This document shows positions 16,484 through 38,798 of a DNA stretch of 64,000 bases, piece after piece. The translations under genes were made by a program, and so were the position numbers. The notes beneath the pieces were generated by a model. The model had not been told where the DNA came from. It worked only from the letters and a program-made list of their open reading frames with translations, and did no database searches. The DNA comes from Candidatus Bathyarchaeia archaeon. GTDB lineage: Archaea; Thermoproteota; Bathyarchaeia; Bathyarchaeales; Bathycorpusculaceae. Every line of letters begins with the position of its first letter. Within the stretch, counting starts at the first letter, position 1. The stretch spans positions 1 to 64,000 of the forward strand of contig JBEKGO010000022.1 in assembly GCA_050012755.1 (NCBI GenBank), read 5' to 3'.

Positions 16484-18088
16484 TCAGGCTTGTTTGAATT
16501 CCTCTCGGATTTTCATCTGTCTTCGTTTAAGGTTGTAACTTAGCGAAAAGTCATGTGTCGCATCGCGGATTTTTCTCAGCAAAAGCATCATTCGACTGTT
16601 CCGGTCAAAACTCTTTGGTGCAGGATCATCTGGCAAGTAAATTTCTTCATGTTCCTTAGCTAGACCGATCAGCGGAATCTTCAATCCCAAAGTATCAAGT
16701 GCCGCTTTTGCAGCGCTCACTTGCCCAGGTCCACCATCAATCATCACTAAGTCAGGCAGCGGGCTTTTCTCCTCAACCGAACGTTTGTACCTTCGCGAAA
16801 CAACCTCGTTCACCGACGCAAAATCATCCTGCCCCACGAAGGTTTTGATTTTGAATTTTCGGTAGTTCTTCTTGTCAGGCTTCGTATCCCTGAAAGCAAC
16901 CATACCTGAAACTACATGTTCTTGCCCCAAATTGGAAATGTCAAAAGACTCAATCACACGCGGCAACACTGGAAGATTAAGCGCTGCTTGCAAATCCACT
17001 AGGGCACTGTCAACTTCTAAAGTAGACTCCAAATTCTTCTCCGCCAACTGCACAAGCGCCAATTTATCAGCTCGCCGAGGAATTGTCAATGAAACAGGTG
17101 CATTCCGTTTTGCTGAAAGAAATTCTTCAAGAGCCTTTTTCTCTTCTGCACCCTCCCAAACGGGTTTGTTTAACAAAATCTCTCGGGGAATCTGGCTAGT
17201 CGCGTAAAAAGCTTTCAAAAATTCCTGCTCAATCTGAGGCTGCAGATCAACGGTAAACTGGTTTTTGCCACGCAAAACGCCTTTGCGGACACCCATTTGG
17301 ACTGCCAACATTTTCTCGCCAACCCGCTTGAAAGCCATAACATCTTGGTCAAACCGCCTTTCATGGTCAACGATCTGGTGCTGAGTCAGAAGCCTAATCG
17401 ATGCAACTTGGTTGCGAAGATCAAGCGCAGTTTCATATTGCTTTTGTGCTGACGCTGTATGCATTTGAGAGGTGAGTTCCTCGATTGTTTTCTGGTAATT
17501 GCCATTAAGTAAGGAACGTGCACCCTTAACTTGCTCTGCATATTGTTCAGCAGTGACTTTGTCGATGCATGGTGCAGTGCAAATATGGATGTGAAAGTTT
17601 AGGCAAGCACGTTTATGCATTGTCTTGCATGTACGCAGTTTAAACACTCTTACTACCAAGCGCTGGAGGTCTTGCCGTATGAAACCTTCAGTGTATGGCC
17701 CAAAAGATTCAAGTTTACGTGAAACCTTGCGGCTCATCAATATTCTCGGGTATGGTTCTCTTGTAAGTGAGATATATGCGAAGGTTTTAGCGTCTTTAAG
17801 GTCAATATTATATTTTGGCGTATGCTGCTTAACCAGCTTGTTTTCCAAGAGCAGCGCTTCAACTTCGTTGTTGACGATAATCCAGTCGATATTTCTAATA
17901 TGGGAAACTAGTTGTCGGGTTTTTGCTGGTTGATCTGAAGTTGAAAAGTAGCTTTTGACTCGTGAGCGGAGACTTTTAGCTTTGCCAATGTAGAGGATTT
18001 CGCCTGTTTCGTCCTTGTACAAGTAGACGCCGGGATTGGTTGGTATGTTTTGGCTTCTAAAATCTTTAGGGCACGTGATTTTGATCAT
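16484..18088 (-). CDS. uvrC: Excinuclease ABC subunit C (no obvious C-terminal HhH domain)
   Basis: GIY-YIG domain (PGVYLY...LYIGKAKSLRSRVKSYF, EALLLE), UVR domain, RNase H-like FDISN...DDFAS...IDGG. Confidence 0.95.
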   Translation of the reverse strand: MIKITCPKDFRSQNIPTNPGVYLYKDETGEILYIGKAKSLRSRVKSYFSTSDQPAKTRQLVSHIRNIDWIIVNNEVEALLLENKLVKQHTPKYNIDLKDAKTFAYISLTREPYPRILMSRKVSRKLESFGPYTEGFIRQDLQRLVVRVFKLRTCKTMHKRACLNFHIHICTAPCIDKVTAEQYAEQVKGARSLLNGNYQKTIEELTSQMHTASAQKQYETALDLRNQVASIRLLTQHQIVDHERRFDQDVMAFKRVGEKMLAVQMGVRKGVLRGKNQFTVDLQPQIEQEFLKAFYATSQIPREILLNKPVWEGAEEKKALEEFLSAKRNAPVSLTIPRRADKLALVQLAEKNLESTLEVDSALVDLQAALNLPVLPRVIESFDISNLGQEHVVSGMVAFRDTKPDKKNYRKFKIKTFVGQDDFASVNEVVSRRYKRSVEEKSPLPDLVMIDGGPGQVSAAKAALDTLGLKIPLIGLAKEHEEIYLPDDPAPKSFDRNSRMMLLLRKIRDATHDFSLSYNLKRRQMKIREEFKQA

Positions 18089-20982
18089 GCAGTCTGCTTC
18101 ACTGTCAAAATAGTTTCTTCTTGCTGATGGTTAAGTATTTTCTTCAAAAACATTCCAGTGTAAGAAGCATCGTTTTGTGCGACTTCTTCAGGTGTTCCCT
18201 GAGCCAAGAGCTCGCCGCCAGCAGCTCCACCTTCGGGACCCAAATCGACCAGGTAGTCGCAGCTCTTAATCACATCTAAGTTGTGCTCGATGATATAGAC
18301 GGTATTGCCGTTGTCAACTAGCCGATTCAAAACTTTAATCAACCGTTTAGTGTCATCAAAATGCAGACCCGTAGTCGGCTCGTCAAGCATGTAAACTACA
18401 TGTCCCTTCTTGTTTTTGCTTAGTTCACGAGTGATTTTTATGCGTTGACTTTCTCCGCCTGACAAAGTCGTTGAGCTTTGCCCCAGCTTAATGTAACCTA
18501 ACCCAACTTCCAGCAATGTGCCAAGTTTTCGTGAGACTCTTGGAGTGTTCTCGAAGAATTTGGCTGCTTCCTCCACGGTCATATCCAACACTTCAGCTAT
18601 GTTTTTGCCCTTGAAAAGAATACCAAGTGTTTCTTTGTTGTATCGTTTACCTTTACACTCACTACATTGAACATAAACATCTGGAAGGAAGTTCATTTCA
18701 ATACGCAGAACACCGTCACCTTGACAGGTTTCGCATCTGCCTCCCTTCACGTTGAAACTGAATCGCCCTTCTTTGTATCCTCTTGCTTTTGCCTCTTTGG
18801 TTGAAGCGAAAATACGCCTAATCTCATCGAAAAGTTTAGTGTAGGTTGCTGGGTTACTTCTTGGAGTTCTCCCGATTGGGTCTTGATCGATAACTATAAC
18901 ATTCCTGACGATTTCAGGAACTTCAATTGATTCGTGTTTCCCGATTTTATCGGTTTGTTCACCAAACATTTGCTTCAACGCAGGAATAACTGTCAAATTC
19001 ATCAATGTGCTTTTGCCTGAGCCGGAAACGCCTGTAACTCCACATAGAACGCCCAGCGGCAGTTGCAAGTTTAGGTTTTTGAGGTTGTTTTCTTGTGCAC
19101 CTTTAACGGTGATGTAACCGACGGGTTTACGCCTTGTGTCGGGGACTTCAATTTTTAGTTCGCCTGAGAGATATTTGCCTGTGAGGCTTCGCTTATTGAG
19201 CATAATTTCTTCAGGTGGTCCTTCGGCAACTACATGCCCACCATGGACTCCTGCACCCGGTCCCATGTCTACAATGTAATCAGCTTTACGTATGGTTTCC
19301 TCATCGTGTTCCACGATAATCAGTGTATTGCCTAAATCGCGTAAACGGTGAAGCGTGCTTATCAACTTGGCATTATCTCTTTGATGTAAACCGATGCTGG
19401 GTTCATCAAGGATATACAGTACACCCATCAGGTTACTGCCAATTTGTGTGGCTAAACGAATTCTTTGGGCTTCACCGCCTGAGAGTGTTTTTGCTGCTCT
19501 AGAAAGCGAAAGGTAGCTTAAACCAACATTTTTGAGAAAACCAAGTCGTTCATTGATTTCTTTGAGCACCTGTTTGGCAATGGCTAATTCTTTCTCGTTA
19601 AGTTGCTCTGCCAGATTGCCAAAGAAGGTAACTGCTTCCTCGATTGAAAGGTCTGTGGCATCAATAATGCTCTTGTCCAAGATTTTTACAGCAAGCACTA
19701 CTGGCTGCAGTTTCTTGCCTTTGCATGAGTTGCAGGGCTTAGAAGTCATATAGTTCTCGATATCTTCTTTTCGCCATTGGCTCTCCGTTTGACGATAAAG
19801 CCTCATTGTTTGAGGAATTACGCCTTCCCAGCCGTCACGCATCCACATTGTTGCCCCATTTGACCATTGACCACTGACAGGCTCTCGGTCTCCGTACAAG
19901 AGCACATGCTGTTGCTCTTTTGTAAAATCTTTAATTGGAGTGAAAACGTCAAAGCCGTGTTTTTTGCCGACCATTGCAAGTTGTTGTGCACGCCAGCTAA
20001 GGTCCATACTTCCGTAAACGGCTAATGCGCCATCCATAATGGAGAGGTTTTTGTCTGGAATAACTTTGTCTTCTGAGATTTCTGTTATTTCGCCTAAGCC
20101 GTGACATGTTGGGCAAGCGCCAAAAGGCGAATTAAATGAGAACATGCGAGGCTCGAGGCTTTCAAACACTATTTCTGGATGGTTTGGGCATGCTCCAAAA
20201 GTGCTAAACATCGTTTCATCGGCGAACCGCTCAAGCTCCTTCTTTTCTTCGTAAGCTTTTTTGGCATCTATGACTATCATGGTACCTTTGCCAACTTTAA
20301 GTGCTTGCTCAACGGCTTCAGAAATGCGGGAACGCTCATCATCAATAATGCTCACGGTATCAATGACTGCTTCAATCCAATGTTTCTCATAACGCACAAG
20401 CTTGACTTCTTCTTTGATGCAGTCTGAATCATAAATTTTCTGGTCTGCCCGGATTTTAGTGTAACCTTGTTTTTTTAAGTCATCAAAAATTTGCTCATGA
20501 GTGCCTTTTATGCCCCTTATTATTGGCGCCAAGAAAGTGAGGGTTTTTCCTTTTTCAGCCATTATTAAGCTGGTGATGTTTTCGGGACTTTGGGGATGAA
20601 TTGAACTTCCACATTTTGGACAGTGATGTGTACCGATACGTGCAAAGAGCAATCTGAGGTAATCGTATATTTCTGTAACTGTGCCAACCGTTGAGCGGGG
20701 ATTTTTGCTAGTGCTTTTTTGTTCGATGCTAATTGCCGGAGATAACCCGTCAATTGAGTCAACATCTGGCTTATCCATTAAACCTAGAAATTGTCTTGCA
20801 TAAGCTGAGAGACTTTCAACATAACGCCGTTGCCCTTCAGCATAAATGGTGTCAAAGGCAAGGGTTGATTTCCCTGAGCCTGAAAGCCCAGTAATCACTA
20901 TAAACTTGTTTCTGGGCAACTCCACATCAATATTTTTGAGGTTATGCTCCCTTGCGCCCTTAATTGAAATATTATCTCTCAT
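18085..20982 (-). CDS. uvrA: Excinuclease ABC subunit A
   Basis: Two ABC ATPase modules ([17 protein letters not shown]; [17 protein letters not shown]) and Zn fingers. Confidence 0.98.
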
Positions 20983-21039
20983 AACCTAAACCAGTTTCCT
21001 TCTCCGCTCGTAAATTATCCTTTTTACGCTTGAGGCTTT

Positions 21040-23019
21040 TCAACCTTTTTGCTTCAAAACCCTCAATTGCTGGGTATAATCTTCGCTTTCTAACTTATTT
21101 GCCAAAGCCCTATTCAGCTCTGCAATTGTATCTCTGAGTTCAATTGCCCGCTCAAAGTTTAATCGCTCTGCCGCTTCCCTCATCTGCGCATCCAACTCAA
21201 TTAACTGCCGTTTGATGTCTGTTTTCGCAAGATGTTTTATCCCCTTTATAGTGCCCTCTTTCAAAGACACACCCTTAACGATCGTAGTCGGCGTGATATG
21301 ATGAATTTCGTTGAAACGTTTCTGGAATGAACGCCTGTAACTGGTAATTTTCATAGCTCGCTTAATAGACGATGTTTCCACATCAGCGTAAAGAATTACT
21401 CTGCCGTTGACGTTTCTCGCGGCTCGACCAATAGTTTGGATAAGACTTCGCTCGTCCCGTAGGAAACCTTCCTTGTCAGCGTCCAAAATGAAGATGGTGG
21501 CAACCTCAGGAATGTCTAAACCTTCACGCAAAAGGTTAATGCCGACTAATATATCAAATTCGCCCACTCGCAGTTGCCGTACAAGTTCAATTCGGTCTAA
21601 GCTTTCAATTTCTGAATGCATGTATCTGACCCGGAAGCCTTCCTTTACAAGATAATCTGTTAAATCTTCAGCCATACGTTTTGTCAAGGTTGTGATTAGC
21701 ACACGGTCGCCAGTCTCAATTGTTTTTTTGGCTTCAGTCATTAAATGTTGCATTTGTCCCGAGATTGGATGAACTTCAACCTCAGGATCCAAAAGACCCG
21801 TTGGCCGAGTAATTAATTCAACAGGCGGACCGCTTTTCTCCAGTTCATATTCGGCTGGAGTTGCTGAAACAAAGAGAACTTTGCCCATTTTTCGCTCAAA
21901 TTCCTCAAATTTCAAGGGTCTGTTGTCTAGGGCGCTTGGGAGCCTAAAGCCGAAGTCGACGAGGTTCTTTTTTCTGGAGAAGTCACCGTTGTACATGGCT
22001 CTTGATTGAGGAATAGTCTGGTGACTTTCATCAACAATTAAGAGGTAATCCTTTGGGAAATAATCAATCAAAGTGAAGGGTGGCTCCCCGGGTCTGCGTC
22101 CATCAAAGTGTCTGCTGTAATTTTCCATTCCAGCGCAGAAGCCGACTTCACGTATCATTTCTAAATCATAGTTTGTTCGTTGTTTGAGCCGTTGAGCTTC
22201 AAGTGGAGGAAGTTCAGGTAATCTGGATTCTAATTCTTGCTTAATAGCTTCAAGGGCGAGTGCATGCTTCTCTTCTGGAACCACGTACTGTCGTGCGGGA
22301 TAAAGCGTAACCTTATCAAGGGTTCCTTTAACATCGCCCGATATCAAATGCACTTCTTTGATTTTGCTAATTTCGTTTCCTGCAAGCTCAATTCTTATAA
22401 TATCATTCTCGTAGGATGGCACGATGTCCAGGACGTCGCCGCGCACACGGAATCTGCCGGGTTCAAGTACCATGTCGTTGCGCTCGTACTGCATGTCCAC
22501 TAGGGCATGGATGAGTTGTTGTCTTGTGTTTTGCTTTCCAACCTCCAACTGAATTGCCATGGTTCTGAAGTCGTCGGGGTTTCCAAGACTATAGATGCAG
22601 CTTATACTTGCAACAATTATGGTGTCGTTTCTGCTAACTACGCTCGATACAGCGTGCATCCGCATTTTTTCTATTTGCTCATTCACGGACGAATCCTTTT
22701 CGATGTACATGTCTTGCGCTGGCAAATACGATTCAGGCTGATAAAAATCATAAAAAGAAATGAAGTATTCAACTCGATTATGTGGGAAAAGCTCTTTTAA
22801 TTCCCCATAAAGCTGAGCAGCTAAAATCTTGTTGTGTGCAAGGACAAGGGTTGGTTTTTGGAGTTTGTTGATTAGGTTTGCCATGACAAAGGTTTTGCCG
22901 CTGCCAGTGATTCCAAGAAGGGTTTGTTTTTGATTTGTAGCGAAGTTTTTCACTAACTTTTCAACTGCTGCAACTTGCCCTGGCGAGGCTTGAAATGGAG
23001 CGATAAGTTCAAACTGCAT
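21040..23019 (-). CDS. uvrB: Excinuclease ABC subunit B
   Basis: GITGSGKT, YDFYQPESY beta-hairpin, DESH, GFRLPSALDNRPL, QTIGRAARN. Confidence 0.98.
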   Translation of the reverse strand: MQFELIAPFQASPGQVAAVEKLVKNFATNQKQTLLGITGSGKTFVMANLINKLQKPTLVLAHNKILAAQLYGELKELFPHNRVEYFISFYDFYQPESYLPAQDMYIEKDSSVNEQIEKMRMHAVSSVVSRNDTIIVASISCIYSLGNPDDFRTMAIQLEVGKQNTRQQLIHALVDMQYERNDMVLEPGRFRVRGDVLDIVPSYENDIIRIELAGNEISKIKEVHLISGDVKGTLDKVTLYPARQYVVPEEKHALALEAIKQELESRLPELPPLEAQRLKQRTNYDLEMIREVGFCAGMENYSRHFDGRRPGEPPFTLIDYFPKDYLLIVDESHQTIPQSRAMYNGDFSRKKNLVDFGFRLPSALDNRPLKFEEFERKMGKVLFVSATPAEYELEKSGPPVELITRPTGLLDPEVEVHPISGQMQHLMTEAKKTIETGDRVLITTLTKRMAEDLTDYLVKEGFRVRYMHSEIESLDRIELVRQLRVGEFDILVGINLLREGLDIPEVATIFILDADKEGFLRDERSLIQTIGRAARNVNGRVILYADVETSSIKRAMKITSYRRSFQKRFNEIHHITPTTIVKGVSLKEGTIKGIKHLAKTDIKRQLIELDAQMREAAERLNFERAIELRDTIAELNRALANKLESEDYTQQLRVLKQKG

Positions 23020-23096
23020 TGTACTTTGTCACAAACCAACAAGAAATGACTTCCAACTAGTAGAATTAATAAGTTTATTCTAGAAAGTCCAGAATT

Positions 23097-23408
23097 TCAG
23101 GCTTTATTGTTGTTTTGAGACGTTAACTTGTGGTTGTTGGCTCTTTTTCTTATTCGGTGAAACTGCCAGCGTTTTAAAACGAAAGCTGTCAATGCAGCTG
23201 CAAAGAGTGAATCATAGATTATCTGAATCGATAGGCTTTGAAAATTAGTGCCTCGCAGATTAGCATGGACCACTCCCATGAACAACGCCAGGTACATTAG
23301 CGTGTGGAATGGAGGCTAGTATGATGAAATTTTTCTACGCAGAAGTACCGTTCCAAATGCTAAATAAATGAGAAGTAAGGCTATGATGTTGCCAACAAAA
23401 AGAAGAAA
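23097..23408 (-). pseudogene. Fragment of a ferric-reductase-like transmembrane protein with an in-frame stop
   Basis: ...LAFGTVLLRRKISSY*PPFHTLMYLALFMGVVHA; TAG at 23318-23316 where Trp of the WxxxH...H heme helix is expected; N-terminus missing. Confidence 0.6.
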
Positions 23409-23493
23409 CTACGAACAAAAATCAAAAATACAAACAGGCAAAGCAACAATCGCTTACCAAGAAAATAAAGAAAAGCGCTCTTAACTAAGCGTT

Positions 23494-23802
23494 TTAGCCA
23501 ACGGCTAGTTTTCCAAATTTTCCAACGTTAAGTTGAAGTTCGCCTTTAAAGCTGGTTATGTATCCGTTGTCAATTTTAACATTGTCACCGACGTTGACTT
23601 GGTCAATTTGCTCATTCCATAAAGTCAGTTTTATGCTACCTGACTCATCGGCAACCACAGCATCAACTATTCTGTAAGTTTCATCTTTAAAACGTGATTT
23701 GACTTCTCGGGGGTCGCCTTTTTCAACAACTTTCGCTTCAACGCTAACCCGTTTCATTCCGTTCTGTAAATCTTTAATTGGTGTCACACTCACACTTATC
23801 AC
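23494..23802 (-). CDS. ssb: Single OB-fold single-stranded DNA-binding protein (crenarchaeal SSB type)
   Basis: IKDL, VADESGSIKLTLWN, FKGELQLNVGKFG. Confidence 0.88.
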   Translation of the reverse strand: MISVSVTPIKDLQNGMKRVSVEAKVVEKGDPREVKSRFKDETYRIVDAVVADESGSIKLTLWNEQIDQVNVGDNVKIDNGYITSFKGELQLNVGKFGKLAVG

Positions 23803-23855
23803 CTAAATTTGATTTTTCCCTCTCAGGGTTTTCACTTGCAAAAGTGCCCTTCAAT

Positions 23856-23871
23856 CATATAAATCTTGCTA
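23856..23871 (-). promoter_or_regulatory. Probable BRE/TATA promoter of ssb
   Basis: Minus strand TTAGCAAGATTTATATG about 55-70 bp upstream of the ssb start; it abuts the transposon target site. Confidence 0.5.
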
Positions 23872-24035
23872 ACTTCGGTTCTGTCAACTCTTCGGTTATT
23901 TGTTTTCCATGTAAACTTTCGGTTACGTTCTGTTACCCTCTCCGACTGTTCCATCTTCATGTTTCTTTTCGTCTGCTAATTCATGAAAGTAATAAATACT
24001 GAAACTAAACCATATTTCATAATTTGGAAATATCA

Positions 24036-24410
24036 ATGCCGAAATGTGAATTATGCGGAAAAGAAATACACTATCCCGAATTTCCATTCCGATGCCCTTA
24101 CTGCCAAAAAACATTCTGCGCCGAACATCGAATACCTGAAAGTCACGCATGTACAAATACACCTTTTTTAGCGCCTACTCTAACTTCGACAAAAACATGG
24201 GAACCATTTATGTGCCCAAATTGCGAAGCTCAAGAGAAAGATTGCGACATCACATATTATGATGCGGAAATAGTTACTTTCAAGTGCCGAGAATGTGGTA
24301 ATAAATGGACTCAAAAAAAGGGCAATTATGAACATGTTGAATTAAGAGAGCATTTAGATAAGAAAGAAAATGAAACTGAAAAACCGAAAAAGAGATTTCA
24401 TTTCTTTTGA
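24036..24410 (+). CDS. AN1-type zinc finger plus Zn-ribbon protein (transposon cargo)
   Basis: CELC...FRCPYCQKTFCAEHRIPESHAC AN1 pattern; second CPNC...CREC ribbon. Confidence 0.8.
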   Translation: MPKCELCGKEIHYPEFPFRCPYCQKTFCAEHRIPESHACTNTPFLAPTLTSTKTWEPFMCPNCEAQEKDCDITYYDAEIVTFKCRECGNKWTQKKGNYEHVELREHLDKKENETEKPKKRFHFF

Positions 24411-25534
24411 GTTGTTTTGGAGGAGCACGCGTTTTGAATGAGCGTTAGCCATTTGTTTTTTCCTTCTATTGCTATTCCACATGCTTCGCTCGGAGTTTTT
24501 CCGTCTAATGCTTCATGCGGTCTAATGAAGTTATGATAAAGTTGGCAACCTTGAAGAATTGCTGTATCAGTTGTCTTTAGTCCTCGCATAGTCTTTTCTC
24601 TATCTCGGATTTCTCCGTTCATGCGTTCCATTTTGTTATTATTGTGATTGCCTTTTAAAGTGATATGCCTAATGTGTTTGGTTCTAGGTCCTTTCATTGT
24701 CCACCACTCTTTGCCATATGCAACATGGTAAGAGTGTAGTCCATCAGTTATGAAAGTCATGGGTTTTTTTCCCATTAGTTCTTGAGACATACGTAATAGA
24801 TTTCTTGCGTCATGTTTGTCTTTGGTGTCAGCTACTTCTTGGGCTATCCAGAAACGTGTTTGGTCATCCATCATTGAAAAGAGATATTTCATGTTGCCTT
24901 TTACCTTTAGATAAATTTCGTCTGCTCTCCAAGTATCGCCAACATTAGGAACCAGTTTATCAGCGTAATTCTTCATTAAAGCAACATATTTTTTAATCCA
25001 ATTAAAAACCGTTTGATGCGAAACTTCCACTCCTAAAAGTTTGAGTGACTCCATTGTATTTCTTAAGCTCTCTCCAGAGAAATAAAGTTGCATAGCAGAG
25101 GTTATCGCTTGAGGATTATGCTTCATCCGTTCAAAACCAAGATTCACACTAAAGGTTTTACCGCAATCTTCACATAAGAACCGTTGAATATTTCCACTCT
25201 TGTTTTTTCTAACACTAAATTTTTTGATGTTTGCTGAGTGGCAAAAAGTGCAAGATGAAACATTAACCTCTTGAATGACAACATTCTTTCTGACCTCTGC
25301 CTTCAGTTTTTGGCTAAAGTCTACTGCAAAAATATGTTTACACTTGACATGGCGATACATAGCATCTGGGCAATCACACATCAATTCACCGTTGACTCTA
25401 TTAACGGTATATTCGCCATTGTTGGATTGTGATTTGACAATATAGAGGCAATCATCGATTTGTTTTACTTGACCGTTTAATTGTGCGATTGTTTGACCTC
25501 GTTCTTGTCTTGTGGTTGTTAGTTGGTTTGTCAT
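24398..25534 (-). CDS. IS6-family-like DDE transposase with N-terminal SWIM and Zn-ribbon domains
   Basis: SWIM CDCPD...CKH; CTFC...CEDC ribbon; HTH (GESLRNT...VSHQTVFNWIKKY); catalytic WRADE, ITDGL, NNKMERMN; HNFIRPHEAL. Confidence 0.92.
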   Translation of the reverse strand: MTNQLTTTRQERGQTIAQLNGQVKQIDDCLYIVKSQSNNGEYTVNRVNGELMCDCPDAMYRHVKCKHIFAVDFSQKLKAEVRKNVVIQEVNVSSCTFCHSANIKKFSVRKNKSGNIQRFLCEDCGKTFSVNLGFERMKHNPQAITSAMQLYFSGESLRNTMESLKLLGVEVSHQTVFNWIKKYVALMKNYADKLVPNVGDTWRADEIYLKVKGNMKYLFSMMDDQTRFWIAQEVADTKDKHDARNLLRMSQELMGKKPMTFITDGLHSYHVAYGKEWWTMKGPRTKHIRHITLKGNHNNNKMERMNGEIRDREKTMRGLKTTDTAILQGCQLYHNFIRPHEALDGKTPSEACGIAIEGKNKWLTLIQNACSSKTTQKK

Positions 25535-25633
25535 TTTAGGCACCTAAAACATAATTAGGTACCTAATAATATAAGCATTTCGGTACCTAAAATTATATAA
25601 AGGTCTAATATCTATTAGCCTAATAGGTGCCTA
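25534..25633. promoter_or_regulatory. Divergent tnp/abrB promoter region with four TAGGTACCTA-like palindromic operators
   Basis: TTTTAGGCACCTAAAA 25534-25549; ATTAGGTACCTAAT 25554-25567 (perfect palindrome); CGGTACCTAA 25581-25590; TAGGTGCCTA 25624-25633; TATA-like TTATATAAA about 25593. Confidence 0.7.
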
Positions 25634-25636
25634 AAA

Positions 25637-25801
25637 ATGAGGTTACAGAAGCAACTATCAAGAAAAGTGGATAAAATCGAATACCCAAAATATGTTGTGA
25701 CAATTCCACCGAAACAAATTCAAGAAGCAGGGTGGAAAGAGGGAATAGAACTTATAGCCGTTGTAGAAGACGGAAAAATTATTTTAAGACCTAAACAATG
25801 A
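25637..25801 (+). CDS. AbrB/MazE/SpoVT-family DNA-binding protein (54 aa, not in ORF track)
   Basis: MRLQKQLSRKVDKIEYPKYVVTIPPKQIQEAGWKEGIELIAVVEDGKIILRPKQ; VTIP...GW..G..L...IILRP swapped-hairpin signature; GGTG SD. Confidence 0.85.
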   Translation: MRLQKQLSRKVDKIEYPKYVVTIPPKQIQEAGWKEGIELIAVVEDGKIILRPKQ

Positions 25802-26563
25802 ATGTAGATGTTCATAAACTGCCTTAACTTCTTTATCAACGTCAGCCATTATTGTGCTTAAAGGAACCCCTATTATTTCTTTGGTTTGTCCTCCATCTGG
25901 AATACACCATATTTGAGGCAAGCCCTTTCCTACACCAACATTTTTTGTAATTTCATCTGTCTCTACGTATTTAATTGCGAATGCACCAATTTTTGCGGAT
26001 TGCACCATATTCATCGATTTATTCCAACATTTTCGGAAAATCTCAACGATGGGATTATACCCTATGAATACTGCTTCAGGCACTTCGACAGGTAAACAGT
26101 TAGTCGATTCTAAGTAGTACAGTTTGGCTAGATCATCTCTAGCGTTAACAGCAATTAAAATTTGAAGAGCACATTCATCATCGTTTTCAAACGCAACTGA
26201 ATATCGTTTTTTCATATCTGTAAGTAATTCTACACAATCTTGCTTAAAGTCAACAACAGAATATTCAAAATAAGGTGGGTTGGGGGCATCAGGATTATTT
26301 CCGAATGTATCTTCTCTATCTTTTTTTAATTTAGCGTTTTGATAAGTAATCCAAGATAAACGGCGATTTACATTTTGAGGAAGAATTGTTAGAAATTCTT
26401 CAAAGAGATTTTCCAAACCTGCTGCTCCAAAAATTGCCCATGGGATATTTTCACATTTCCTAACTTTCTCGGCATTATGTCCAACAAATTCGCCAGATCT
26501 AACTAATCTATCGCTAACAAGTACTACGCCGTCAGTGCATCGTGCACCGAAAATTAAGGTCAT
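25784..26563 (-). CDS. Proteasome-beta-like Ntn hydrolase (transposon cargo)
   Basis: MTLIFGARCTDGVVLVSDRLV...AEKV; Thr at position 2, Asp17- and Lys33-equivalent residues, GAAG, C-terminal NVGVG; GAGG SD before ATG 26563. Confidence 0.75.
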   Translation of the reverse strand: MTLIFGARCTDGVVLVSDRLVRSGEFVGHNAEKVRKCENIPWAIFGAAGLENLFEEFLTILPQNVNRRLSWITYQNAKLKKDREDTFGNNPDAPNPPYFEYSVVDFKQDCVELLTDMKKRYSVAFENDDECALQILIAVNARDDLAKLYYLESTNCLPVEVPEAVFIGYNPIVEIFRKCWNKSMNMVQSAKIGAFAIKYVETDEITKNVGVGKGLPQIWCIPDGGQTKEIIGVPLSTIMADVDKEVKAVYEHLHSLFRS

Positions 26564-26825
26564 GTGTTTATTTCCTCGCAGTCTTTTCCATTGCTCTTTT
26601 AGGTACCGATTACGTTGATTCTTGTATAAAGCATTTTGCTCTAGCAAGTTTAACCGACTCTTTACAGCCAAAAATTAAGCCTCCTTTTTACCGAAGACTT
26701 GACAGAACCCTAACTTCGGCACAGTTACCTCTACGGTTGCTGTTTTTCCCAAAATCTTTTGGAAACTTTCGGTTGCTGGAGGAATTCCAGTTGGGCAAAT
26801 AATAAATCTGAAGTGACACATGTTA

Positions 26826-27698
26826 ATGAACATGGATACTCGCAAGATTGCACAAGCAATATTGGATGCAATCGGTCACATCGGTTCAATCTTATGGCTT
26901 TTGATATTGCTAGGTGTGATCCCCGAACCAATGTTCCGAGGAGTTAACGTCATGCAAGAATACTCCCTAGTCTTCATTTTTCTGGCTCTGTTGATATTCT
27001 TTCTCTCTGCCCTTTGGTTGGGTTGGCAGATTCACACACGATATGTAAGGATTCCAGCATTCTCTCGAAAGGCAATTCCAAATGTGGATGAAAGATTTCA
27101 TAATCTGAAATTTCATTTTTCTCGGAAAACGGACACAGCAAAGGGTTCTCATGAACCGCCTAATTTCGTGGTGTATCAGGAAATTTACAAAGACACAAAA
27201 GAAGCCTATCCGATTCCTAATTATCTAGAACCTTATTTGAAAGCCTTTGAGACTAATTGGCAATCATACGATGGTATTAACAAAATAATGGAATATTTTG
27301 AAATTAACAAAATTCATCTGAACATCAAAGATCCTAGTTATGAAGATTTGGGTCTAGTGTTAGGTTGGGATGGATTACTCCATCTACCTGATTTGGACTG
27401 GGATATATTATTGAAGAAAATTGGCGGAAAAAAAATCAAAGGCGCAGTTATCTTCAATTTTCACTCGGTACGCTATATTTTTAGTTCCAAACCGTTTCTC
27501 ACACCTAACCGACTTCTAATTATAGAAAGAGAAGCATTTTGGGCTCCTCATCACGATATAGACTTGCTTTTTAGTCACAAAATAGAGCATAGAGATTGGA
27601 CTAAAATCAATTATAAGCTCTGGTGTTTGATTCATCATTACCATTATCATCCAGAGTACTATGATGAGGAAAAATTGCTTGAACTCTTAAAAGATTAG
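26826..27698 (+). CDS. Hypothetical protein with two N-terminal TM helices (cargo of element 2)
   Basis: About 290-aa AT-rich ORF; two hydrophobic helices then a soluble domain with no recognisable motif. Confidence 0.65.
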   Translation: MNMDTRKIAQAILDAIGHIGSILWLLILLGVIPEPMFRGVNVMQEYSLVFIFLALLIFFLSALWLGWQIHTRYVRIPAFSRKAIPNVDERFHNLKFHFSRKTDTAKGSHEPPNFVVYQEIYKDTKEAYPIPNYLEPYLKAFETNWQSYDGINKIMEYFEINKIHLNIKDPSYEDLGLVLGWDGLLHLPDLDWDILLKKIGGKKIKGAVIFNFHSVRYIFSSKPFLTPNRLLIIEREAFWAPHHDIDLLFSHKIEHRDWTKINYKLWCLIHHYHYHPEYYDEEKLLELLKD

Positions 27699-27858
27699 TA
27701 AACTGATTGCTGTCTTTTGTTTGCACTTGCGTTTTGTATTAGGGTTTTCCACTTGTTTTGTCCTTCAATGGCTATCCCACATGCTTCACTTGGAGTTTTC
27801 CGTCTAAGGCTTCATACGGTCTAATGTAATTTTGGAACAATTTGTAACCTTGAAGAAC
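27695..27858 (-). pseudogene. Frameshifted 3' remnant of the IS6-like transposase
   Basis: VLQGYKLFQNYIRPYEALDGK/TPSEACGIAIEGQNKWKTLIQNAS vs intact ILQGCQLYHNFIRPHEALDGKTPSEACGIAIEGKNKWLTLIQNAC; one base missing from a T-run. Confidence 0.9.
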
Positions 27859-28052
27859 CAAATAGAAGCGACAAGAGTTATTGAAGAGTTCGAATCGGAA
27901 AAGACTCAAAAAAGTTTTTCAGACTTTCCACTTTAGTTTGCTATCGACCGATTTTTCACAGAGAAAATCGTCAACGGACAACTTCACAGAACCCTAACTT
28001 TCTGTGAGCTGAAGCAAAAAAGAAAAAATTTAAAAAAAGACGAATTGTGGGG

Positions 28053-29342
28053 CTAAACAAAACCCACGAACAGCACTAAGACAAACCACGTAACTGCTAC
28101 GCTAACAGCTGCAATCAAAATTCGTTTCATCATTGAAAACTCTGGTTGAAGTGTTCCAACAATTATTGTGCAGAGAGCGCCTAACCAAACGTAGGATACT
28201 AAGAACATCGCTTCAACGACAAAGTCGAAGCCTGAGGTTACTGCCACTATATTGTTGAGAACAGCTTGGGACTGCGCTGTATAAGTGACTGCTGCTTGGA
28301 CAGGCACATATATTGCCCCATAAGGATTAGACGTAACCCCAAGTGAGACGTCAAATGGATAATAAACTGTGGGCAAGGTAAATGCTACCGCAATGTTTAC
28401 TACTGATCGAATGACCATAACAAACAAAGCAAAAACTACTGCAACAAAAAGGGGTTTCCAAGTGATATTGGCTTTTAACCCTTTGAAGAAGAGGTAAATT
28501 AGCCCTGTTAACAACAGCCAACTAAAAATGAACTGTAGAGAGAAAGCCTCCAAGAAGGATAGTAGAGCATTGGGTCCATAGGTTTGAATGAAAGTTTGAT
28601 ATTCCCCATGGAAGAATAAAGCGCCAATACGAATGACGAAATTTGAGCCAGATGGATAATTGAAGTCTAACTTTAATGCTGTAATATTACCCCAAGAAGG
28701 TGCTCCGCCAACGGCCCAGCCTTGAGCAGATGGACCTACTGGAATTGTTAGGTTGTTCCACTGGTTAATGTCTGAAGAGTTTGACATAAGTGAAGTTAAG
28801 TCATAAGTGTAATAGTTAGAGTCAGCAACTGAGTAAAGAGTAATAGTTGCGCTTGTGGGCACGATTTGAGGTTGAACCTGTTTTAACGTCATTGATAAGT
28901 TCTCAAAGCCGCCAGCAGCGCAGCTAACATTGAAAGCATTGCTTAAAGCAGCGGAAACGGCGCTAGCGTTGTTGGCATCAATTTCCAAGCTGCTATTTCC
29001 AAATAAACTGTAGTTTCCTATAATCGCTGGAACGTAAACGCTGTAGTTGAAGTAGTCATCAAAATTGTTGCTAATCGTTACGCCAGCACTGGCTCTCCAT
29101 AATGTTGAGTTTGGTTCAGAGGACATCGCTGCTGTTGCGTTGATATAATCTGATAATTGACCGATCGCAGGTGATGTGTTTTCGGTGTATGTTTTTGAGA
29201 ACTGTGCATATGCATATCCCATTTGTAAGCCTATGAAAAGAAGCAGAATAATTATGGCACCCAGATACTTTGGATTTTCAATTATCTTCTTGAATGCTGT
29301 TGCTGGTGCATAAATTACTCTTGCAATGTCATCTAGAATCAA
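28053..29342 (-). CDS. Yip1-like membrane protein with a large extracellular insertion
   Basis: VIYAPATAFKKI Yip1-type start; extracellular beta-rich region with NxS/T sites; C-terminal TM helices. Confidence 0.65.
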   Translation of the reverse strand: MILDDIARVIYAPATAFKKIIENPKYLGAIIILLLFIGLQMGYAYAQFSKTYTENTSPAIGQLSDYINATAAMSSEPNSTLWRASAGVTISNNFDDYFNYSVYVPAIIGNYSLFGNSSLEIDANNASAVSAALSNAFNVSCAAGGFENLSMTLKQVQPQIVPTSATITLYSVADSNYYTYDLTSLMSNSSDINQWNNLTIPVGPSAQGWAVGGAPSWGNITALKLDFNYPSGSNFVIRIGALFFHGEYQTFIQTYGPNALLSFLEAFSLQFIFSWLLLTGLIYLFFKGLKANITWKPLFVAVVFALFVMVIRSVVNIAVAFTLPTVYYPFDVSLGVTSNPYGAIYVPVQAAVTYTAQSQAVLNNIVAVTSGFDFVVEAMFLVSYVWLGALCTIIVGTLQPEFSMMKRILIAAVSVAVTWFVLVLFVGFV

Positions 29343-29393
29343 TCTCTCGACTCCCGTGGCTATCTGAGATTCACTGGGATTTATAAGTATTTG

Positions 29394-30902
29394 TTACATG
29401 CCAAGTTTAAGCCGACGGTAGGTAGTGTAATCCACGTACTCTATGAAGGGGTTTTCAGTTTGGAATTTAACCGTAACTTTCTGGCGTTTTCGCTTGTCAA
29501 GAAGCTGATTTGTGGTCCTAAGCAAATATGCGTCGCTTCCTGCGCCTGAACCGTAACTTGCGACCAAGATTCTGTCTTCAGGCTTTGCTATATCTAACAC
29601 CGCGGCTAAACCCGTAAGTGAGCAACCTGAATAAGTGTTGCCAATTTTGTTAATTTGAAGCGAGGGTAAGTACTGTTCATCTTTAAAACCGAGCTCTTTT
29701 GCGATTTTAACTGGAAACGTTGGGTTTGGCTGGTGCGCTACAAAATAGTTTATGTCACTTGGTTTGAGATTTGAACGTTCCATGATTTTAGTAGTTGACT
29801 TGCGGACGTGCTTAAAGTAAGCTGGGTCACCTGTGAATCGTCCACCATGCATGGGAAAAGTCTCGCCGTCTCTGCGCCAAAAATCAGTGGTATCGGAAGT
29901 ACATGAGTACCAACTTTCAACTTCAGCAATAACATCCTGTTTGCCAAAAATATATGCAGCACCACCGAAACCGACAAAAGTATCTAATTCGCCGCCAAGG
30001 CAACCTCTGGGGGCGGCTTGAGAGTTATCTGCGCCGATAACCATTGCGTATTTTACTCCTGACTTTGGATAGTTAACAAGAGCTGAGGCGTCTTTGAACA
30101 TGCTTGAAGCAGCTTTACACGCAAACTGTGTGTCAACTGCATCAACACCTTGAATGTCGCCGTCTTCTTCTCCAAGCTTTAGAACCTGAGCAACCTTTGA
30201 TGAAATTGGCTTAACAGCGTACGGGTTAGATTCAGAGCCAACATAAACCTTACCAACCAAAGTACTGTCAACGCCTGAGTGAATCAACGCCAATTTTCCA
30301 GCTTCAACCGAAGCTGTTACCGCATCTTCATCGATAAATGGAACAGCACGTTCCAACCCGCTTTCTTTAATTCTGAACTTTGAAGTGTAAACGCCATAAC
30401 CTACCACTCCAGGCATCTCATATTCTTTGGTTGGCGTAAAAATTTTGTAATCTTGATGTGGATAATATTCATCGGCTAAAGTGAAAGCCAAAGAGATAGT
30501 TGGAATCATGTCGCTTTTGCCGACGGAATAGCGCCGTCTAAAACGGGGAACCACTTCTCTGCCTTCAAGGCTTGAAAAATCAACATCGGCGCCGTCACAT
30601 ATCAATTGGTCTGTTAATCTTGCTGGAACACGGATTTTGCCATCATGGAAAGAAACGATTCCATAAATAAAGCTTGAAAGTTTAATGAATTTGTTTGTAG
30701 GTTCGTTGATGTAGGTGCATAATTCAAGTTTGCCTTTATCATAAAATAGGTCGATGCTGTCCATTTTTCCGAAGCTTTTTCTGCCGCAGTTAGTGCAGTA
30801 ATCTCTTACTTCAAAGTATTCTTTCCCGCAGCTTTGGCATCTGCTTGCTTTTAATCTGTCGCCTAAAAAAGAAACTCGTCGCTCTATGGGTTCACTACTC
30901 AA
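29394..30902 (-). CDS. DUF35 (Zn-ribbon/OB-fold)-hydroxymethylglutaryl-CoA synthase fusion
   Basis: N-terminal CQSC...CTNC plus OB fold; then GVVGYG, DEDAVT, VGSES, FACKAA (catalytic Cys), HQPN, IGNTYSG, SYGSGAGSD. Confidence 0.9.
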   Translation of the reverse strand: MSSEPIERRVSFLGDRLKASRCQSCGKEYFEVRDYCTNCGRKSFGKMDSIDLFYDKGKLELCTYINEPTNKFIKLSSFIYGIVSFHDGKIRVPARLTDQLICDGADVDFSSLEGREVVPRFRRRYSVGKSDMIPTISLAFTLADEYYPHQDYKIFTPTKEYEMPGVVGYGVYTSKFRIKESGLERAVPFIDEDAVTASVEAGKLALIHSGVDSTLVGKVYVGSESNPYAVKPISSKVAQVLKLGEEDGDIQGVDAVDTQFACKAASSMFKDASALVNYPKSGVKYAMVIGADNSQAAPRGCLGGELDTFVGFGGAAYIFGKQDVIAEVESWYSCTSDTTDFWRRDGETFPMHGGRFTGDPAYFKHVRKSTTKIMERSNLKPSDINYFVAHQPNPTFPVKIAKELGFKDEQYLPSLQINKIGNTYSGCSLTGLAAVLDIAKPEDRILVASYGSGAGSDAYLLRTTNQLLDKRKRQKVTVKFQTENPFIEYVDYTTYRRLKLGM

Positions 30903-32127
30903 GTTTCTTGTCTCCTAGAACAGTAACGTAAGCTTTGGTTCCAAAGCCCTCGTACTCTAGAACACAACCATTCTTCTGCGAACTATTAATCTTAACTTGA
31001 CGCTCGCCAGCTTCTCCTCTTAGCTGACGGTAAATTTCGAAAATCTGTGCTCCACCTGTGGCGCCCAACGGGTTTCCATCAGCTTTTAACCCACCATTAG
31101 TGTTAACGAAAAGTTGCCTGCCATCTATTTCGTAGCAGTTTTGATCATTTTGGCAGCCTTCATTTATACTCTTCCAAGCCGTGCCTGGTGCGCAGAATCC
31201 TAAATCTTCAAGAGAAACAAGCTCCATCATAGTGGACTGATCATATACCTCGATGACCTGCATATCAGATAAGGCTGTTTTAGCCTTTCGAGAGGCATTC
31301 TTCATAGCCAATTCCGCAGCAACAAAGTGGGATAGGTCCTCTCTTGCAGGATAATTCAGGTAATCAGTTGCTGAAGTGCAGTCTAAAACGTAAATTGGGT
31401 GATCATTTAACTTTTTGGCAACTGCCTCGCTTGTAAGAATTAAGGCTGAAGCGCCGTCGGAAATTGGGGCAAAATCATAGAGTCCTAGGGGTTTATGCGC
31501 TTTTTTTCTTGCAGTTAACACCTGATCAATAGTAATTTTTCTATGATATTGGGCATACTTGTTTTTGGTTGCGTTTGCATGATTTTTGACCGAAATCTGA
31601 GCCAATGCGAGATTGAGTTTGTCGAGTTTTTCTCCAGTGATATGGTGTTTTTTTATGTAGGCTCTAAGCATAAGTTCGTGGTTTGATTCTGGAGTTCCGC
31701 CTGCAAAATAGCTCCATGGATCATCCAGAAGCATTAGGTCGTCTCGTATTTTGTCCCAGCGATCAGTCATTTTTTCTATGCCACCCACAAGGACAGTGTT
31801 GTAAACTCCAGCCTGTATTGCGTGGCAAGCGGTTAACAATGCAGCGCTAAAAGAGCGAGTTACCTCCATAGGTACATGAAGTTGGGTAAGTTCTGAGAGG
31901 AACCCTTCTTCTAAACCCAATTTATTGGTGATGGGTAGAAAACAATCTGACATGTAACAAGCTTCTAGGTTTTTGCGTTCCATGTTACATTCATTAGAAG
32001 CGCCAAGCCATGCTTCCTCAATCAGCTTTTCCGGTTCTTTGCCGTAATGTTCTCCAAACTTGGTTCTGCCAACGGCAACTATCGCTGGACGACTTTGCAA
32101 GTTGTTTTCTTCCTTTTTGGATAGCAT
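30895..32127 (-). CDS. Thiolase-family (acetyl-CoA acetyltransferase-like) protein lacking catalytic residues
   Basis: VGRTKFG, GGIEKM, KNHANA, PISDGA, NTNGGLKADGNPLGATGGAQ; catalytic Cys, HDCF and GHP motifs absent. Confidence 0.85.
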   Translation of the reverse strand: MLSKKEENNLQSRPAIVAVGRTKFGEHYGKEPEKLIEEAWLGASNECNMERKNLEACYMSDCFLPITNKLGLEEGFLSELTQLHVPMEVTRSFSAALLTACHAIQAGVYNTVLVGGIEKMTDRWDKIRDDLMLLDDPWSYFAGGTPESNHELMLRAYIKKHHITGEKLDKLNLALAQISVKNHANATKNKYAQYHRKITIDQVLTARKKAHKPLGLYDFAPISDGASALILTSEAVAKKLNDHPIYVLDCTSATDYLNYPAREDLSHFVAAELAMKNASRKAKTALSDMQVIEVYDQSTMMELVSLEDLGFCAPGTAWKSINEGCQNDQNCYEIDGRQLFVNTNGGLKADGNPLGATGGAQIFEIYRQLRGEAGERQVKINSSQKNGCVLEYEGFGTKAYVTVLGDKKLE

Positions 32128-37925: not shown

Positions 37926-38798
37926 GTGCCGTTAATTACAAATTTTGACCCTTGGCGATCAGGCCTATGCACATGTCCGCCGAAACTCACGTTAAACCCT
38001 TACACTGGATGCGACCACCAATGCACCTACTGCTACGCTTCCAGCTACATCCCAAACTTCAGCGATTGCAGACCCAAAAAAGACCTGCTTGCAATTTTGA
38101 AACGCGAAGCAGGAAAACTCAAAGGCGAAACCATCTCAATAGCCAACTCATCAGACCCATACCCGCGTGCAGAAGCATCTACAGGGTTGACGAGGAGATG
38201 CCTAGAAATTCTATCTAAAAGCAACTGCAAAATCCAAATAATCACCAAAAGCAACATCGTAACCAGAGACGACGACTTGCTAACAAAAATTCCTTCAACA
38301 GTAGCGTTAACCATAACCACGGACGACGACAACTTGGCAAAACTGATTGAACCGTGGGCACCTTCACCGTCTCAACGTCTTAGGGCAGCCCAAGACTTGA
38401 TCAAAGCAGGAATACCCGTCTCGATTCGAATCGACCCCATTATACCCTTGGTAAACGATCAGCCGCAAAAACTCATTGCAGAGCTAGCCAGTATAGGTGT
38501 AAAACACTTAACATGCTCAACTTACAAGGCTAAAGCTGATAATTGGATGCGTCTCACCCGAGCCATGCCAAAAGTAGCGGACAAGCTTAAGCCACTCTAT
38601 TTTCAGCAAGGCGAAAAAATCGCCGGCAGCACGCTTTTGCCAAAAGACCTAAGATATAAGCTTCTTAGAGACATACGAGATTTGGCAGAGGCTAACGGGA
38701 TGAAGTTTGGCGTTTGTAGAGAAGGCTTAGCTCAACTAAACACGGCAGCATGTGATGGCTCATGGCTTATGCCGAAGGGCAAAAGGAGCACGCTGTAA
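37926..38798 (+). CDS. Radical SAM protein, spore-photoproduct-lyase-like (COG1533)
   Basis: LNPYTGCDHQCTYCYA, SDPYP, ITKS, PSPSQRL, RIDPIIP. Confidence 0.85.
   Translation: MPLITNFDPWRSGLCTCPPKLTLNPYTGCDHQCTYCYASSYIPNFSDCRPKKDLLAILKREAGKLKGETISIANSSDPYPRAEASTGLTRRCLEILSKSNCKIQIITKSNIVTRDDDLLTKIPSTVALTITTDDDNLAKLIEPWAPSPSQRLRAAQDLIKAGIPVSIRIDPIIPLVNDQPQKLIAELASIGVKHLTCSTYKAKADNWMRLTRAMPKVADKLKPLYFQQGEKIAGSTLLPKDLRYKLLRDIRDLAEANGMKFGVCREGLAQLNTAACDGSWLMPKGKRSTL

Follow-up and report, generated by a model that had tools for sequence, protein, structure and literature searches.

A probable family of passenger-carrying, IS6-like transposons in archaea, represented by two head-to-tail elements in a Bathyarchaeia genome

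Introduction

Insertion sequences (IS) of the IS6 type are the textbook example of 'transposase-only' elements. Here we describe a 4.1-kb block in a 64,000-nucleotide stretch of a Candidatus Bathyarchaeia archaeon genome (assembly GCA_050012755.1, contig JBEKGO010000022.1, positions 1 to 64,000 of the forward strand; hereafter the window), which very probably represents two members, placed head to tail, of a family of IS6-like transposons that carries passenger genes and resides in archaea, mainly in Bathyarchaeia. According to excerpts of a review of the IS6 family (PMC7986276), its hallmarks are GG..CTGT repeats and an 8-bp duplication, relatives of IS26 insert about 100-fold more often beside a resident copy, and ISDsp3 alone is named there as a member with a passenger gene. 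In archaea, passenger-carrying DNA transposons went undetected in a 2019 survey by Krupovic et al., as far as the excerpts used here extend (PMC6563490), and a term search of a 2026 census of archaeal insertion sequences (PMC13343696) finds no occurrence of the word 'passenger'. We found no description of the present clade in the literature on IS6 passengers or on Bathyarchaeia mobile elements and their cargo; coverage of that literature was partial, and ISfinder tables may list more passenger-carrying IS6 members.

An initial annotation of the window, made from the nucleotide sequence, had read the two elements as a conserved tnp–abrB core with two hypervariable positions, acting as a platform for gene capture or shuttling, with cargo of a kind typical of defence or conflict hotspots. 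All the features that it described are present and the observation is thereby confirmed, while the interpretation is partly supported.

Results

Two abutting elements with a common 8-bp spacer

The block (23877-27993) consists of two abutting elements, with an SSB-like OB-fold gene on one side and a Yip1-like membrane gene on the other, in a source genome of 2.4 Mb and 65 contigs. Its G+C content is 0.36–0.38, as against ~0.42–0.44 in the flanks. A repeat search together with direct reading gave the layout, from left to right, as CTAACTTC, element 1 (23877-26709), CTAACTTC, element 2 (26718-27993), CTAACTTT. The ends and target-site duplications are:

23869-23876, unstranded: target-site duplication copy 1, CTAACTTC, identical to the 8 bp at 26710-26717
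23877-23896, plus strand: left inverted repeat of element 1, GGTTCTGTCAACTCTTCGGT, 95% complementary, 29.1 bits on the family repeat matrix
26690-26709, minus strand: right inverted repeat of element 1, 25.3 bits on the same matrix
26710-26717, unstranded: target-site duplication copy 2, the 8-bp spacer common to elements 1 and 2
26718-26737, plus strand: left inverted repeat of element 2, GGCACAGTTACCTCTACGGT, degenerate, forming a direct repeat of 75% identity with the element 1 left end
27974-27993, minus strand: right inverted repeat of element 2, 24.6 bits on the same matrix
27994-28001, unstranded: target-site duplication copy 3, CTAACTTT, a 7/8 match

Element 1 is intact, 2,833 bp long, and holds three genes besides its transposase. 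Its inverted repeats of 20 bp, complementary at 19 of 20 positions, begin with GGTTCTGT, and GGTTCTGTCAAC... is found at both ends. The repeats enclose the following features:

24024-24410, plus strand: AN1 zinc-finger gene, 128 amino acids (aa), Pfam zf-AN1 with an E-value of 9.4e-10
24398-25543, minus strand: transposase, 381 aa, with an N-terminal Cys/His zinc-finger region and an IS240-type DDE domain
25536-25634, unstranded: divergent tnp/abrB control region with four TAGGTACCTAA-type palindromes
25637-25801, plus strand: abrB, 54 aa, AbrB/MazE fold, Pfam MazE_antitoxin with an E-value of 1.1e-7
25784-26671, minus strand: proteasome-beta-like N-terminal nucleophile (Ntn) hydrolase, 295-aa pro-form, Pfam Proteasome with an E-value of 4.4e-5
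26599-26610, unstranded: fifth AbrB-type palindrome, at the 5' end of the Ntn gene, with 1 mismatch

The transposase matches the Pfam family DDE_Tnp_IS240 (PF13610; E-value 2.8e-18, 66.8 bits against a cut-off of 27), barely passes the NCBIfam model transpos_IS6 (NF033587; 126.2 bits against a cut-off of 125), and weakly resembles IS1/IS1595 zinc-binding models in its Cys/His-rich N-terminus. Its gene is the sole intact transposase gene of the family in the source genome. Element 2 measures 1,276 bp and has two features between its repeats:

26820-27698, plus strand: gene for a 292-aa protein with two hydrophobic segments (hereafter the two-TM protein, for transmembrane), no Pfam match
27695-27858, minus strand: transposase remnant, the last ~55 codons with one frameshift

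The left repeat of element 2 scores 10.1 bits, the lowest of all repeats scored, the family median being 30. Apart from their repeats, elements 1 and 2 have in common just 130 bp at the 3' end of the transposase gene; the remnant is 82% identical in DNA to element 1. Since such a remnant is retained, we regard element 2 as a deletion derivative. The gene said to run into the transposase stop does so in both elements, the AN1 open reading frame (ORF) overlapping the transposase 3' end by 13 bp and the two-TM ORF overlapping the remnant stop codon (27695-27697) by 4 bp; in element 2, however, the partner is just the frameshifted remnant. The second proposed slot of element 1, between abrB and the right repeat, is likewise there, occupied by the Ntn ORF, which is convergent with abrB and overlaps it by 18 bp. 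A third, truncated element lies on contig C7 of the source genome (G000, locus L002, 1564-2403) and reads transposase C-terminal fragment, co-directional 143-aa hydrophobic ORF of no recognised family, good terminal repeat (30.3 bits).

The insertion site is empty in most congeners

Two host genes delimit the block:

23494-23802, minus strand: SSB-like OB-fold gene, left flank
28053-29342, minus strand: Yip1-like membrane gene, right flank

A DNA search of 41 same-genus genomes returned 21 in which both flanks lie on a single contig. The flanks are 45–110 bp apart in at least 17 of these 21, and the site is therefore empty there. Empty-site sequences were read for seven genomes and contain a single CTAACTnn-like 8-mer wherever the left anchor aligns. 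In 4 of the 21 the site is occupied by family members that differ in repeat type; one is inverted, and CTAACTnn is the position used in every case. The loci concerned are the window, L073, L074 (the same as L019), and L075. The site may be an insertion hotspot, or may hold an old insertion that has since turned over. Inspection of the empty site by eye for repeat-like sequence revealed nothing consistent between genomes; an Rfam scan of 22500-29500 at E ≤ 0.1 gave no match, and there is no tRNA within 20000-32000. A TATA-like ATATAAAT is located just downstream of the insertion site.

The junction between elements 1 and 2 is spanned by contigs at 100% identity in all four public peat runs examined, one of which may be the source sample. 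In three of these four runs we also noted a contig joint 23869->28129, possibly from an empty-site relative; its sides comprise just 19–30 letters at 90%, and it was not counted as evidence. Over a conserved part of the transposase gene (24569-24735) the summed contig depth reached 157–321 in two of the four runs, compared with ~5 over the rest of element 1, so many related elements appear to be present in those peat communities.

Beyond the flanking genes, the window contains genes at 18085-23019 that we take, by eye from their translations, to be UvrA- and UvrB-like, and genes at 29394-32127 that are presumably a fused DUF35-like/HMG-CoA-synthase-like gene and a thiolase-like gene, recognised in the same way. 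A weak match (13.2 bits) to the family terminal-repeat matrix at window position 38344 is far from any transposase match.

A family of elements that moves with its cargo

The window transposase retrieved 34 family loci from species-representative genomes, mostly of Bathyarchaeia, with a few from Nitrososphaeria or Methanomethylicia and two in records labelled as bacterial bins. The latter two, labelled Saccharibacteria (L027, a 6.4-kb contig) and Limnocylindrales (L048, a 58-kb contig), each carry a type IIG restriction-modification gene, and could reflect either mis-binning or transfer into bacteria. A scan of viral contigs for the transposase found no relative, using single-sequence patterns of low sensitivity.

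At 21 loci a GGTTCTGT-type repeat pair and a perfect 8-bp duplication enclose 2.6–5 kb. Once L016 and L017 are included, the loci with a perfect 8-bp duplication number 23 of 34, with elements of 2.4–5 kb built around a transposase gene of 1.1 kb. The consensus of 52 ends is GGTTCTGTGAAGTCTTCGTC, and the 23 duplications show no target consensus beyond AT-richness. Loci L016 and L017, whose transposases are the closest to that of the window (76%), come from one metagenome-assembled genome and are 100% identical over 2,434 bp, arms included, while their perfect duplications differ. This is direct evidence for recent transposition of the whole unit, together with its arms and cargo, and bears out the proposed shuttling of cargo.

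Variable arms between conserved ends and core

The cargo was catalogued in 25 delimited elements (23 relatives and the two of the window) by calling ORFs of at least 50 aa; L016 and L017 were delimited later and their ORFs stand outside the catalogue. This yielded 128 ORFs, of which 27 were transposases or fragments thereof and 101 were non-transposase ORFs, with one to eight of the latter in each catalogued element. BLAST grouped these 101 into 84 clusters, eight common to two or more elements and 76 singletons. Homologous elements thus neither lack cargo nor always carry the same genes, and the reading of the elements as a passenger platform survives.

Pfam was run on 50 upstream-arm and 48 downstream-arm ORFs, with additional single scans. 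Restriction-modification genes, full length, occur in 5 of the 23 catalogued relatives: L027 and L048 each carry a type IIG restriction-modification fusion, L024 a BsaWI-type endonuclease together with its methylase, L046 a methylase on its own, and L030 a methylase–Mrr fusion. The same scans identified HEPN (L032), NYN (L031, L034), and GNAT (L031) proteins, and left most other cargo ORFs of the family without a Pfam family. PADLOC matched methylases, NYN, and 'mad2' in the cargo of relatives; at E ≤ 0.01 it assigned no family to the AN1, AbrB, Ntn, and two-TM proteins or to the 143-aa ORF on contig C7. The suggestion that the cargo belongs to defence or conflict systems is in part supported by relatives, which carry restriction-modification, NYN, and HEPN genes, but finds no PADLOC match in the window itself.

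Pairwise comparison of close relatives showed that the terminal 50–83 bp and the abrB–transposase core are conserved while the DNA between them is unrelated, in agreement with the two hypervariable positions proposed initially. L028 and L032, for example, have ends of 83 bp and 82 bp and a 1,418-bp core in common at 82% identity, and their downstream arms of 768 and 1,199 bp are unrelated; the pairs L031/L047, L018/L023, and L022/L030 are similar mosaics. Homology breaks near the transposase stop codon and 50–83 bp from each end. The conserved junction sequences expected at slot borders did not materialise, in that no motif was found in these comparisons beyond the terminal 50–83 bp, and Pfam and NCBIfam scans detected no integrase or other recombinase among the ORFs inside the repeats. 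With neither junction motif nor recombinase, the 'slots' are best described as simply two dispensable intervals. The gene adjoining the transposase 3' end is co-directional with it in about 13 elements and convergent in about seven. Stop-codon overlap in convergent orientation, as seen in both elements of the window, is therefore no rule of the family.

Tandem insertion of family members

Tandem junctions were sought in 36 sequences as a right end with a left end behind it at a distance of 0–20 bp. Eight abutting-repeat junctions were found in seven loci (L024, L025, L027, L030, L031, L043, and L048), and in each of them precisely 8 bp separate the two repeats. Shuffling twenty times produced five junctions, spread over all spacers. 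Wherever the adjoining element was delimited, that is, in six of the seven loci (all except L025), the spacer equals its duplication. At L030 (2914-8998) three units stand in a row with TTGAATAT at each border. Three further tandem cases are the window, L073, and L080 (1229-1238). The neighbours in such tandems are different members of the family, in either orientation.

A portable abrB–Ntn cassette

In 18 of the 34 loci a hidden Markov model (HMM) search located a core-type small divergent gene, 90–130 bp upstream of that for the transposase. The core type is also the one present in L016 and L017. The AbrB of the window shows no BLASTP similarity to this core type; its gene is 70–85% identical to abrB genes that are convergent with Ntn homologues in five other genomes. 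We conclude from this resemblance that abrB–Ntn is a portable two-gene cassette that occupies the abrB position. The conserved tnp–abrB core of the initial annotation thus stands insofar as about half of the loci have a core-type abrB, but the window's own abrB belongs to the Ntn-linked subtype, and the only constant core of the family is the ends plus the transposase. Genome G370 has a 5.2-kb element, bounded by good repeats, that carries its abrB–Ntn pair in the same arm as element 1. An ordinary-looking proteasome beta-subunit gene (L061, 10809-11540) directly adjoins the right end of this element on the outside, whereas the Ntn homologue inside is divergent.

The four TAGGTACCTAA-type palindromes fill the 93-bp region between abrB and tnp, and together with the fifth, at the Ntn 5' end, they are the only such sites in the 64-kb window at ≤1 mismatch. 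Palindromes of this type also precede abrB in abrB–Ntn loci of other genomes, including those that lack a transposase, and core-type elements have TAGGTA/TACCTA repeats at the equivalent position. AbrB is predicted to bind the palindromes and to regulate the tnp/abrB and Ntn promoters. Unlike the genes of toxin–antitoxin pairs, which adjoin on one strand and are co-transcribed, abrB (plus strand) and Ntn (minus strand) are convergent with an 18-bp overlap, both here and in L058-L061.

Passenger proteins of the window

The Ntn protein has 27 homologues at 41–67% identity, and its gene is found in 7 of 401 genomes of the class. An alignment of 26 sequences shows a nearly invariant Thr2, invariant Asp18 and Lys33, and a conserved propeptide, the mature part beginning at Thr38 of the 295-aa pro-form. 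Its AF2 model has a pLDDT of 92.9 and a proteasome fold, for which Foldseek returned 20S beta subunits and Anbu. Judging from these residues and the modelled fold, the protein is most likely an active, self-processing protease. In the protein collection it is listed as a 259-aa version starting at Met37. Because the 36 upstream residues align with the propeptides of homologues, what the gene really yields is probably the 295-aa pro-form with its TTG start.

The two-TM protein combines a pair of TM helices at its N-terminus with a conserved ~200-aa domain, and has no Pfam, NCBIfam, or PADLOC match. Three homologues were found in a large protein collection and matches in 4 of the 401 class genomes, the homologues being 29–57% identical. 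Every homologue with DNA context adjoins family repeats or a transposase: G066 has an intact element with the same order (repeat, two-TM gene, convergent transposase), G095 and a metagenome contig have short units with repeats, and G260 has transposase fragments. The structure model, built from five sequences, is poor (pLDDT 56.6), and a search of a protein atlas with the two-TM protein gave no usable match. Cargo varies between elements, but passengers do not exchange without restriction: the two-TM gene and the abrB–Ntn pair each turn up again, in the matching arm, in distant elements.

The AN1 protein combines an AN1 zinc finger with a C-terminal Zn-ribbon-like part. It matches host proteins of 250–290 aa, present in 339 of the 401 class genomes, in the AN1 domain alone, and in sequence it looks like a short captured paralogue.

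Discussion

These observations fit a scheme in which movement would need no more than the terminal 50–80 bp together with the transposase, to which most members add a small AbrB-type regulator encoded divergently; the two arms between these parts could tolerate any DNA. The transposase moves everything between the repeats and duplicates 8 bp of target, as shown above; by analogy with IS26 it probably acts via replicative or cointegrate reactions, with the tandem copies beside residents as indirect evidence. Differences between arms may have arisen both through recombination of related elements in their shared core and ends and through insertion of new copies beside residents with re-use of the same 8-bp target, which would build up tandem arrays, with subsequent decay of their inner parts. 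In this scheme element 1 is an intact member with an AN1 arm and an arm holding the portable abrB–Ntn cassette, and element 2 is a transposase-deleted derivative with the family-specific two-TM gene, presumably movable in trans alone.

Several points weigh against our reading of the window and its family. The source genome has no second copy of element 1 that would testify to recent activity. At 11 of the 34 loci, L016 and L017 initially among them, the repeat matrices did not delimit both ends, and these loci are outside the catalogue, in which most ORFs are, moreover, unverified open frames. Three abrB–Ntn loci have no transposase within 4–6 kb, so the cassette also lives outside elements; the divergent neighbour there is a regulator-like gene, and one of the three keeps a weak repeat beside the Ntn gene. 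An extra inner right-end repeat is found in just 5 of 24 elements and has no matching inner left repeat; such repeats would fit a fusion of tandem neighbours, which is suggestive only. Finally, Harmer and Hall, in the excerpts of their paper used here (PMC6807381), treat long Zn-finger and archaeal 'IS6' elements as just distant relatives of IS26 on which there are no experiments.

With these reservations we propose, tentatively and with somewhat less than even confidence, that the clade is a self-assembling cargo platform. Its transposase would prefer the 8 bp flanking a resident end, and different elements would therefore pile up head to tail and then fuse, through loss of inner repeats and surplus transposases, into larger transposons with new passenger combinations. 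The genes brought together could be those of restriction-modification systems, of AbrB-controlled proteases, and of membrane proteins. In that case the window would capture an intermediate stage, in which an intact element abuts a decayed one, the inner repeat is degenerate, and the outer duplications match at 7/8. The tandem pairs and varied occupants might instead be owed to a hotspot that the host DNA provides by its sequence or structure, comparable to the attachment site of Tn7, rather than to targeting of resident ends. Occupation of the SSB|Yip1 site in 4 of 21 congeners, by different repeat types in both orientations and always at CTAACTnn just upstream of the TATA-like ATATAAAT, would be expected of such a hotspot. 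Yet seven other loci have tandem junctions, at 8-mers that bear no relation to this one, the 23 duplications have no consensus beyond AT-richness, and IS26 relatives are known to prefer sites beside a resident copy (excerpts of PMC7986276), all of which makes a host hotspot distinctly unlikely as the general cause.

As to what the elements carry, a defence role of the window's own cargo is possible. That its passengers are defence or conflict systems (an AbrB-controlled protease, a membrane effector, and a zinc-finger sensor being the candidates) and that the elements are mobile defence hotspots strikes us as rather unlikely. This proposal draws on the restriction-modification genes of 5 of the 23 catalogued relatives and their NYN and HEPN genes, on the rare and patchy distribution of the Ntn and two-TM genes (7 and 4 of the 401 class genomes), and on the conservation of the Ntn catalytic residues (Thr, Asp, and Lys); it is countered by the lack of a PADLOC match for any of the four window passenger proteins, a convergent abrB/Ntn arrangement unlike operonic toxin–antitoxin pairs, the commonness of AN1 as a host domain (339 of 401 genomes), and the predominance of cargo without a recognisable family in relatives. 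At the other extreme, the arm ORFs could be decayed or chance frames, in elements that are long because of junk or the remnants of other insertions. Most ORF clusters are indeed singletons (76 of 84), most have no Pfam family, and some elements contain nested repeats; but the Ntn protein, with its 27 homologues, conserved catalytic residues, and confident fold, the conservation of two-TM homologues at 29–57% identity, the full-length restriction-modification genes, and the eight recurring clusters together make this highly improbable. An integron-like platform, with passengers entering fixed slots by site-specific recombination at conserved junctions, would account for homology that breaks near the transposase stop codon and 50–83 bp from each end. 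Having found no integrase or other recombinase inside the repeats, no repeated junction motif in pairwise comparisons, and a variable passenger orientation, we give this explanation almost no credence.

If the passenger-carrying family is as we describe, a whole transposon clade in uncultivated peat and sediment archaea routinely carries 2–8 extra genes, complete restriction-modification systems included, and stacks beside its own kind. For Bathyarchaeia and related Thermoproteota it would provide a concrete vehicle of gene flow, one able to spread genes for defence or addiction, as well as a simple route by which small transposons could grow, and it draws attention to gene families that are almost confined to these elements, namely the two-TM protein and the abrB-paired proteasome homologue.

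Among described systems, IS6/IS26, with the long clostridial zinc-finger clades and ISDsp3, comes closest. Shared traits are an IS240-type DDE domain that passes the IS6 model, an N-terminal zinc-finger extension, GG..CTGT terminal repeats, an 8-bp target duplication, and a preference for sites beside a resident copy that recalls the targeted transposition of IS26. The present elements differ in their archaeal hosts, in their size and content (2.4–5 kb with 2–8 extra ORFs inside the repeats, versus 0.7–1.8 kb and one ORF), and in their tandem copies, which keep both repeats and share the 8-bp duplication, unlike the product of the conservative IS26 route. Mobile insertion cassettes of the MIC231 type find a parallel in element 2 and in 0.8–1-kb units in L073, L075, L081, and L095, where family repeats surround non-transposase DNA, although element 2 retains a transposase remnant. 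As in transporter IS (tIS) and in Tn3-family unit transposons, one transposase and one repeat pair move unrelated passengers as a unit, but the transposase is of another family and no resolvase or res site was seen in the clade. Tn7-like defence carriers, in the excerpts used of a published account (PMC8649781), resemble the clade in their variable cargo rich in restriction-modification and in tandem arrays that share a target duplication; the present elements are much smaller and have neither TnsABC/D-type machinery nor an attachment-site selector.

The Ntn cargo, for its part, has the fold of proteasome beta, HslV, and Anbu (Foldseek E-value ~1e-10, TM-score up to 0.77 by target), and like them an N-terminal Thr after a propeptide and a conserved Asp and Lys (equivalent to Asp17 and Lys33). 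It stands apart from these proteases by an identity of 10–17%, a 37-residue helix insertion, and a C-terminal helix, and by its genetic setting on a transposon, where a convergent abrB is its partner.

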